Virus record (IMG/VR): IMGVR_UViG_2675903352_000001
Strand: one strand, 5' to 3'
DNA length: 8,367 nt
Origin: a virus
Lineage: Monodnaviria > Loebvirae > Hofneiviricota > Faserviricetes > Tubulavirales > Inoviridae
Positions 415 to 442 of this stretch are shown one piece after another; positions within the stretch are counted from its first letter, which is position 1; each line of letters opens with the position of its first letter. Below the pieces are notes generated by a model that did not search any database, was not told where the DNA came from, and worked only from the letters and a program-made list of their open reading frames with translations. A program made the translations under genes and the position numbers.

Positions 415-442
415 ATTTAACATAATATACATTATGCGCACT
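415..442 (-). other. dif: dif-like XerC/XerD recombination site (27/28 match to E. coli dif); prophage integration junction
   Basis: Reverse complement of 415-442 is AGTGCGCATAATGTATATTATGTTAAAT, against canonical dif GGTGCGCATAATGTATATTATGTTAAAT as recalled. The only mismatch is the first base of the XerC arm. XerD arm (415-425) and central TGTATA (426-431) are perfect. The XerC arm (432-442) faces the prophage. Confidence 0.8.

Follow-up and report, generated by a model that had tools for sequence, protein, structure and literature searches.

The 28-bp site at positions 415-442 of the window (by which we mean the whole stretch of 8,367 nucleotides that was analysed) is very probably the working dif site of Escherichia albertii NIAH_Bird_8 in the form of a phage/host hybrid, and there is good reason to believe that this hybrid was formed by the Xer-mediated integration of a filamentous phage. 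On the minus strand, the site reads AGTGCGCATAA TGTATA TTATGTTAAAT (i.e., AGTGCGCATAATGTATATTATGTTAAAT) and it has the structure of a dif, with an 11-bp XerC arm, a 6-bp centre, and an 11-bp XerD arm that together match the E. coli dif, GGTGCGCATAATGTATATTATGTTAAAT, at 27 of 28 positions. The two sequences differ only in the outermost XerC-arm base, at window position 442 (T on the plus strand and A on the minus strand, a G-to-A change with respect to the canonical site). A previous sequence-only reading of this DNA had reported a 27/28 match on the minus strand and had located the single change in the XerC arm facing the prophage; direct comparison upheld both observations, the central hexamer and the XerD arm being perfect. 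The parts of the site are as follows:

Window 415-425, minus strand: XerD-binding arm TTATGTTAAAT, of chromosomal origin, matching E. coli dif at 11/11 positions and continuous with chromosomal flanking sequence whether the locus is empty or occupied.
Window 426-431, minus strand: central hexamer TGTATA, of chromosomal origin, equal to that of the empty-site dif (the phage attP has TGTGTT).
Window 432-442, minus strand: XerC-binding arm AGTGCGCATAA, supplied by the phage, in which the A at 442 is the sole departure from the canonical dif.

The predicted XerC cleavage position, placed from the literature, lies between 431 and 432. The XerC arm (432-442) points to the inovirus genes, and the XerD arm (415-425) to a chromosomal yefM-like antitoxin gene at 1-222. 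No match to dif with three mismatches or fewer was obtained in 200 dinucleotide shuffles of the window (0/200). A scan of the 8367-nt window found no second dif-like 28-mer, the runner-up having 10 mismatches. A second Xer site inside the window was thus ruled out, and the partner site lies off-window.

The exact reverse complement of the window was found at 8978-17344 of locus L014 (BBVQ01000057.1), which belongs to E. albertii NIAH_Bird_8 (BBVQ01), a strain isolated from an egret in Japan. E. coli was ruled out as the host, window 1-414 being unmatched in any complete E. coli genome. Exact-protein look-ups showed that the antitoxin adjoins dif in 10 E. albertii-type loci and that the phage Rep is present in nine loci. 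A Fic-domain gene follows the antitoxin gene just outside the window, and the same antitoxin-then-Fic order was observed at dif in 10 E. albertii loci. The chromosomal side of the junction comprises two features:

Window 1-222, minus strand: chromosomal gene encoding a 73-aa PhdYefM-family antitoxin (Pfam PF02604, E 4.5e-12), on the host side of the junction.
Window 223-414, no strand: chromosomal intergenic flank on the XerD side of dif, with an identity of 100% to L009 and of 98% to other empty E. albertii loci.

A toxin-antitoxin module flanks dif in both species, namely yefM-fic in E. albertii and hipBA in E. coli (L001 12388-12914), and hipA is truncated beside the integrated element in E24377A and in strain 7/2. 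In the E. albertii loci L006 and L007, a SIR2_2 gene lies beside dif.

The occupied locus was then compared with its empty counterparts, as had been proposed along with the sequence-only reading. A canonical dif is present at the identical position in the prophage-free E. albertii loci L003 and L006-L009, and L009 is 100% identical to window 1-441, the identity being lost exactly from base 442. The same reading had also predicted, past position 8367, a partner site with the chromosomal XerC arm (TTATGCGCACC on the plus strand), and such a site was indeed found in L014, 71-98 nt beyond the window end, abutting the chromosomal flank known from empty sites. When joined, the chromosomal flanks of the two junctions are the flanks of the canonical dif in L003 and L006-L009. 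The four sequences that enter the comparison are (flank / site / flank):

Empty site (L009): ...ctgactatccttt / GGTGCGCATAA TGTATA TTATGTTAAAT / tacacttacta...
Phage attP (L018 tandem-copy junction): ...ccacaacgtc / AGTGCGCATAA TGTGTT ACACGTTATGT / tgaaaaggccgc...
Far prophage end in the source genome (L014 8880-8907; would-be window 8438-8465): ...ctgactatccttt / GGTGCGCATAA TGTGTT ACACGTTATGT / tgaaaaggccgc...
Near prophage end in the source genome (window 415-442): ...ccacaacgtc / AGTGCGCATAA TGTATA TTATGTTAAAT / tacacttacta...

The attP sequence was also found at the tandem junctions of L013 and L015-17 and in the circular 9.6-kb plasmid pJNE25-005_3 (L002). The attribution of the XerC arm to the phage is based on the presence of AGTGCGCATAA in attP at tandem junctions and of the chromosomal G-arm at the opposite end of the prophage. 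From the comparison of the empty dif, attP, and both junctions, and from the arrest of the L009 identity at 441, the crossover was located within a short interval:

Window 429-441, minus strand: crossover interval, the 13-nt GTGCGCATAATGT common to dif and attP, which contains the XerC cleavage position.

At the sequence level, the two junctions are precisely what a reciprocal exchange between dif and attP would yield, and the same two junctions were observed in E. coli E24377A between its own flanks (fimbrial genes and hipA). With regard to the properties of an IMEX, base-by-base reconstruction gave dif-like sites at both ends of the element and an intact dif when the locus is empty. A circular form, with an attP joining the two junction halves, is provided by pJNE25-005_3 and by the tandem junctions, that is, by the plasmid of a relative and not by the window's own phage.

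The prophage unit was inferred from L014 to be 8023 bp long and is present in a single copy. The following features were identified in the window:

Window 443-8367, phage (+) strand on the window minus strand: inovirus prophage, running about 70 nt past the window to the partner site.
Window 912-2131, minus strand: pIV-like secretin gene (Pfam Secretin, Secretin_N).
Window 2141-3410, minus strand: Zot/pI-like assembly ATPase gene (Pfam Zot, PHROG 1675).
Window 3418-5150, minus strand: virion genes encoding pVI-like (119 aa) and pIII-like attachment (456 aa) proteins (PHROG 27651/1944 and 17820/8482).
Window 5803-7541, minus strand: replication module consisting of a 65-aa ORF, Rep, and a 112-aa protein in the RstB position (PHROG 3104, 14411).
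Window 6148-7344, minus strand: RstA-like rolling-circle Rep of 398 aa (Pfam Rep_trans), 33% identical over 95% of its length to CTXphi RstA.
Window 7679-7891, plus strand: divergently transcribed 70-aa gene in the rstR position (PHROG 2503).
Window 8194-8367, plus strand: last prophage ORF in the window, 57 aa, after which come the attP2-like inverted site, the GC hairpin, and the partner site.

By its place in the gene order, the 70-aa gene may encode a repressor. Searches against Pfam and PHROG detected no recombinase or integrase domain in the window, the ORFs of at least 100 aa having inovirus functions or belonging to small unknown families, and there is no room for an integrase gene in the prophage; the absence of an integrase of its own is a further property that the element shares with IMEX. 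The window ends at the stop codon of the last small ORF, so that the hairpin, attP2, and the partner site fall outside it. The most divergent prophage segment is 443-911, where identity to the E. coli copies falls to about 85%, indels are numerous, and no gene could be assigned with confidence. In relatives, the matching segment holds a 64-aa ORF and an extra attP module.

When compared to E24377A, two of the prophage genes are interrupted. The secretin gene, which is intact in E24377A (406 aa), has lost 1 nt from a T run near 1358 and is thereby divided into ORFs of 310 and 146 aa, and zot/pI is cut from 418 to 324 aa by the frameshift that a 13-bp tandem duplication (CCACAGGTAACCA x2) introduces at ~2443-2468. 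The 1-nt deletion could be a draft-sequencing error, which is unlikely in the case of the 13-bp duplication. The prophage is probably a defective, fixed resident.

The architecture of the phage attachment site was analyzed in the source locus and in relatives. At 6-bp spacing, the phage XerD arm, ACACGTTATGT, matches at only 6/11 positions. A better, attP1-like reading consists of the XerC arm AGTGCGCATAA, an 11-nt spacer, TGTGTTACACG, and the XerD arm TTATGTTGAAA (9/11). This attP1-like site is followed by a GC-rich stem-loop and then, 67-93 nt downstream of attP1, by an inverted attP2-like site, TTTACACATAA-CGTCA-TTGTGCGCACT. The partner site, the GC hairpin, and the inverted attP2-like site together occupy L014 8880-8973, equivalent to window 8372-8465, i.e., 5-98 nt past the window end. 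The phage (+) strand, which corresponds to the window minus strand, folds as a 94-nt forked hairpin in which the XerC arms pair together and the XerD arms pair together, with a 6-nt bulge (TGTTAC). The single-stranded DNA fold has a dG of -40.2 kcal/mol (z = -9.9), and none of the shuffled sequences folded as well (0/200). A comparison of nine E. albertii and E. coli variants of the module showed 95.9% of cells to be paired and seven pairs to have compensatory changes, compared with 0-2 in a control in which the partners were slid; most of these changes come from a single divergent 'alt' module, and the A-U/G-C covariation of pair 1-97 is confounded, the G being chromosomal at some junctions. 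In the 'alt' module, the two base pairs by the XerC arm are GA/TC and not TG/CA, and the GC stem is rewritten in a compensatory manner.

Two inverted dif-like sites that fold in (+) single-stranded DNA, as is typical of CTXphi-type elements, were thus found in silico, in features situated just outside the window. Their homology to dif exists only by the XerC arm, where TGT is common and is followed by the divergence of TGTGTT from TGTATA, and their spacers of 11 and 5 bp parallel those of CTXphi (12 and 5-7 bp). A scan of 100,044 species-representative genomes with the hairpin-module pattern returned 0 matches.

Given a hybrid site of Xer-mediated origin, a single-strand route is the one that we favor, with reasonable though not full confidence. 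A filamentous phage of about 8.0 kb, devoid of an integrase, would insert at the E. albertii dif by means of the host XerC and XerD. Its (+) single strand would form the 94-nt forked hairpin that mimics a dif duplex, the host XerC/XerD would bind this hairpin and the chromosomal dif, and XerC would cut each top strand between the arm and the central region and swap them, helped by the common TGT. The intermediate would be turned into a prophage by replication. At one end, 71 nt past the window, the chromosomal XerC arm would adjoin the phage spacer, giving a spacing of 11 bp that would be inactive as a duplex, and at the other end, the window site, the phage XerC arm would be joined to the chromosomal centre and XerD arm with the 6-bp spacing kept. 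The site rebuilt in this manner would continue chromosome dimer resolution and could take further phage copies. We infer the catalysis by XerC and the single-stranded substrate. An attP of the CTXphi type, forming a forked hairpin in (+) single-stranded DNA, suggests that integration would probably be irreversible, and for this reason replicative forms produced from tandem copies would be a more likely source of any circular junction than Xer excision.

The junction sequences alone fit a double-stranded, XerC-mediated integration equally, and a transcription terminator would be an equally good reading of the GC-rich stem with its trailing T run. In a VGJphi-type scenario, the double-stranded replicative form would recombine via a 28-bp attP1, AGTGCGCATAA-TGTGTT-ACACGTTATGT, by XerC exchange and replicative resolution; the process would be reversible, with excision of the prophage possible through the sites on either side of it. 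We regard this scenario as quite unlikely. Although it too predicts exactly the observed junctions and crossover interval, a purely double-stranded mechanism would leave without a role the inverted partner site, which is conserved with compensatory changes. The homology between attP and dif is on the XerC side only, as in VGJphi, but the XerD arm matches at 6/11 positions at the 6-bp spacing versus 9/11 at the 11-bp spacing, which resembles attP1 of CTXphi. A circular double-stranded form does exist in a relative; however, the replication protein is RstA-like, and the single double-stranded attP of VGJphi-type elements, with arms about 7 bp apart, is not what was found, a second inverted site being present.

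The sequence-only reading had taken the 27/28 match with a change in the XerC arm as the pattern of a hybrid site made by phage integration. The hybrid nature of the site was supported by the comparative data, but the single G-to-A mismatch did not hold up as evidence for it: this pattern is not by itself proof of phage origin, because 410/5426 complete E. coli genomes, BL21(DE3) among them, have exactly this A-type 28-mer as a native dif, in one copy each and with no prophage at it. Both in BL21(DE3) (L038 5001-5028) and in strain 042 (L039 5001-5028) it is located between fimbrial genes and hipA, with chromosomal flanks and no prophage. An A-type dif that is chromosomal on both sides and prophage-free was also found in E. 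albertii L012 (9781-9808). That L012 might represent a prophage-loss scar with a deletion was ruled out, its XerC-side flank being normal chromosomal sequence, which points to a native allele, and the same applies to BL21(DE3) and 042. In E. coli, the A-type allele is accompanied by a second SNP located 2 nt outside the arm.

That the A at 442 comes from the phage is instead deduced from the reciprocal G/A at the two prophage ends and from the empty-site comparison. One could argue from the prophage-free A-type sites of E. coli (410/5426, with BL21(DE3) and 042) and E. albertii L012 that the A-type 28-mer is simply the native dif allele of this lineage, next to which a prophage resides for some other reason. 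This is very improbable, since the other end of the same prophage carries a chromosomal G-arm with its chromosomal flank, G is found in the empty-site strain whose flank is 100% identical, the attP of the tandem junctions and of the plasmid form has A, and the same reciprocal pattern is present in E24377A.

The position of the site with respect to the replication terminus was examined within about 10 kb to either side of it. The GC skew changes sign at the site, ranging in the source contig and in seven loci free of the prophage from +0.05 to +0.08 on one flank and from -0.02 to -0.11 on the opposite one. The KOPS motifs (GGGNAGGG), which were present at 0-3 per 10 kb, were all but one directed toward the site. 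The neighbourhood of the site is also syntenic with the E. coli dif region. Because of this skew flip, the converging KOPS, and the synteny, the site is considered to be the terminus dif, in agreement with the earlier proposal that the prophage sits at the chromosome terminus. No further such 28-mer was found in the window or in the 21-kb source locus, and the 410 E. coli genomes contain one each. On a scan that covered the window and the 21-kb source locus, a decoy, with the functional dif elsewhere and the window site a non-functional phage-borne copy, is extremely improbable in view of the empty-site dif at exactly the same position, the skew switch and KOPS convergence centred on the site, the synteny with the E. 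coli dif region, the single such site per genome in E. coli, and the 11-bp spacer of the only other dif-like site at the locus.

The A-type 28-mer is presumably functional, since 410 E. coli genomes, among them those of BL21(DE3) and 042, have no other dif-like site. In the far junction, 11 bp separate the Xer arms, and its duplex form is presumably inert, which would leave the window hybrid as the only usable dif. The hybrid may also be an entry point for further phage copies, and this fits the arrays of two and three tandem copies that were observed in relatives, such as RM9976 (CP043262.1), CP034162.1, and others.

In CP034162.1 (L015 16879-17118, with equivalents in L016 and L017), each of the three tandem copies contains two complete attP hairpin modules, 146 bp apart and in direct orientation. 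Because GA/TC adjoins the XerC arm in the extra module, this module lacks XerC-side homology to the TGTATA of dif; its GC stem is different but compensated. It is such relatives, in which two tandem modules differ at the bases adjacent to XerC cleavage (TG/CA versus GA/TC) and in the stem, that underlie the idea of the attP hairpin as a swappable specificity module that could target variant dif alleles or plasmid resolution sites, an idea that we put forward tentatively and consider unlikely.

The junctions of two relatives, L019 and L011, were not predicted by simple XerC exchange. The L019 junction (7603-7630) reads AGTGCGCATAA GATATA TTATGTTAAAT, and the dif centre of this strain is GATATA. 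An exchange on the XerD side was ruled out, since hairpin cleavage by either XerC or XerD predicts no GATATA; slippage or recombination across an 18-bp imperfect direct repeat ('alt' attP1 versus dif) would explain this junction better. In L011 (9781-9808), the centre of the hybrid dif is TGTGTA, a mosaic of the phage TGTGTT and the host TGTATA, which would be accounted for by a point mutation or by a crossover located deeper in the centre.

Hairpin modules that are 84-87% similar were observed beside hipA, on the XerC side of dif, in the O55:H7 strain DEC5E (L022 6000-6093) and in other E. coli (L025, L026, and L027 at ~1500-1593; L028 at 1501-1569). The cargo after these modules is a TIR-domain protein together with a gpII/X-type inovirus, a SIR2-family protein, or a DUF2971 protein. 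These observations suggest that a shared Xer-hairpin module is used by different dif-targeting elements, some of which carry defence-like genes. With a 126-nt query (L018:8860-8985), positions 44-113 gave matches of about 84% at ~484 places in plasmids, on large E. coli plasmids. The part that matches plasmids begins inside the XerD arm, spans the GC stem and the inverted site, and adjoins a truncated IS200C transposase gene (L023 4001-4069, NZ_CP062893.1). For distant Rep relatives in IMG/VR (46-48% identity, L035-L037), no recognisable hairpin module was found. One of these inovirus contigs, L035, whose Rep is 48% identical, ends at 8742-8755 in GGTTCGCATAA-TGT, a Pectobacterium-type dif half-site, and more distant RstA-type relatives in other Enterobacterales therefore also appear to be located at dif.

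CTXphi has an attP1 with a 12-bp spacer and an attP2 with a spacer of 5-7 bp, borne by a single strand that is folded as a mimic of dif, and it integrates irreversibly through an exchange by XerC only, followed by replicative resolution. Like CTXphi, the phage described here inserts at dif without an integrase of its own, and its inverted dif-like sites fold into a forked hairpin of the (+) strand, with an over-long attP1 spacer (11 nt here versus 12 bp) and a short attP2 spacer (5 nt here versus 5-7). It also shares with CTXphi the homology to dif on the XerC side alone, the rebuilding of a functional dif at one end, the formation of tandem arrays, and an RstA-like Rep (33% identity) accompanied by genes in the RstB and RstR positions. 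Unlike CTXphi, it is hosted by Escherichia, it has a 33-nt GC stem-loop between its sites (about 90 nt in CTXphi), it encodes its own pIV-like secretin and no toxin genes, and its mechanism is read here from sequence alone.

In reviews, CUS-1phi and Ypfphi are placed with CTXphi. These phages, of E. coli O18:K1:H7 and Yersinia pestis, respectively, are likewise enterobacterial filamentous prophages of about 8-9 kb at dif. As in the phage studied here, their gene order is CTX-like with secretion genes added, an intact dif is restored at the 3' end, the phage strand bears XerC/XerD sites in inverted orientation, and tandem arrays (2-4 copies) occur. A megablast of the window against a phage collection gave no match, and a copy of its Rep was detectable by blastn in only 33/5426 E. 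coli genomes. The rarity of Rep and the lack of a match in the phage collection suggest a lineage distinct from CUS-1.

IMEX of the VGJphi and TLCphi types have a single double-stranded attP with a central region of 6-7 bp and integrate reversibly, TLCphi by an exchange in which XerD acts first. The present phage resembles these types in the use of XerCD at dif, the hybrid flanking sites, and the rebuilding of dif, and differs from them in that 11 bp separate its good XerD arm from the XerC arm and that it possesses a conserved inverted partner site. Its relatives in E. coli, the prophages at dif of E24377A (ETEC) and 11 other complete E. coli, show 95-99% nucleotide identity with it, identical attP-derived junctions, and the A-type hybrid dif. 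They are annotated only as hypothetical, Zot, and GspD, and their zot and secretin genes are intact. The flanks differ, with fimbrial genes and hipA in E. coli and a methyltransferase gene and yefM-fic in E. albertii.

Filamentous prophages that use XerCD at dif have been known since 2002 in E. coli (CUS-1), Yersinia (Ypfphi), and Vibrio. A literature search found no published description of the present RstA-type phage of E. albertii and E. coli or of its attP hairpin. The prophage is a clean example of an already well-known mechanism and leaves the current understanding of Xer/IMEX biology unchanged. It provides a base-perfect natural record of Xer-mediated integration in Escherichia, for which the empty site, attP, junctions, arrays, and circle are all present in public genomes. 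The single-strand attP design of the CTXphi type, which has been experimentally characterised only in Vibrio, is extended by these data to an RstA-type inovirus of E. albertii and of diarrhoeagenic E. coli such as ETEC E24377A. For annotation, a near-perfect dif beside Zot and secretin genes marks both a prophage boundary and the replication terminus, whereas the G-to-A change alone is a common native allele. Finally, a dif that is presumably the only one of its host can bear an XerC arm donated by a phage.
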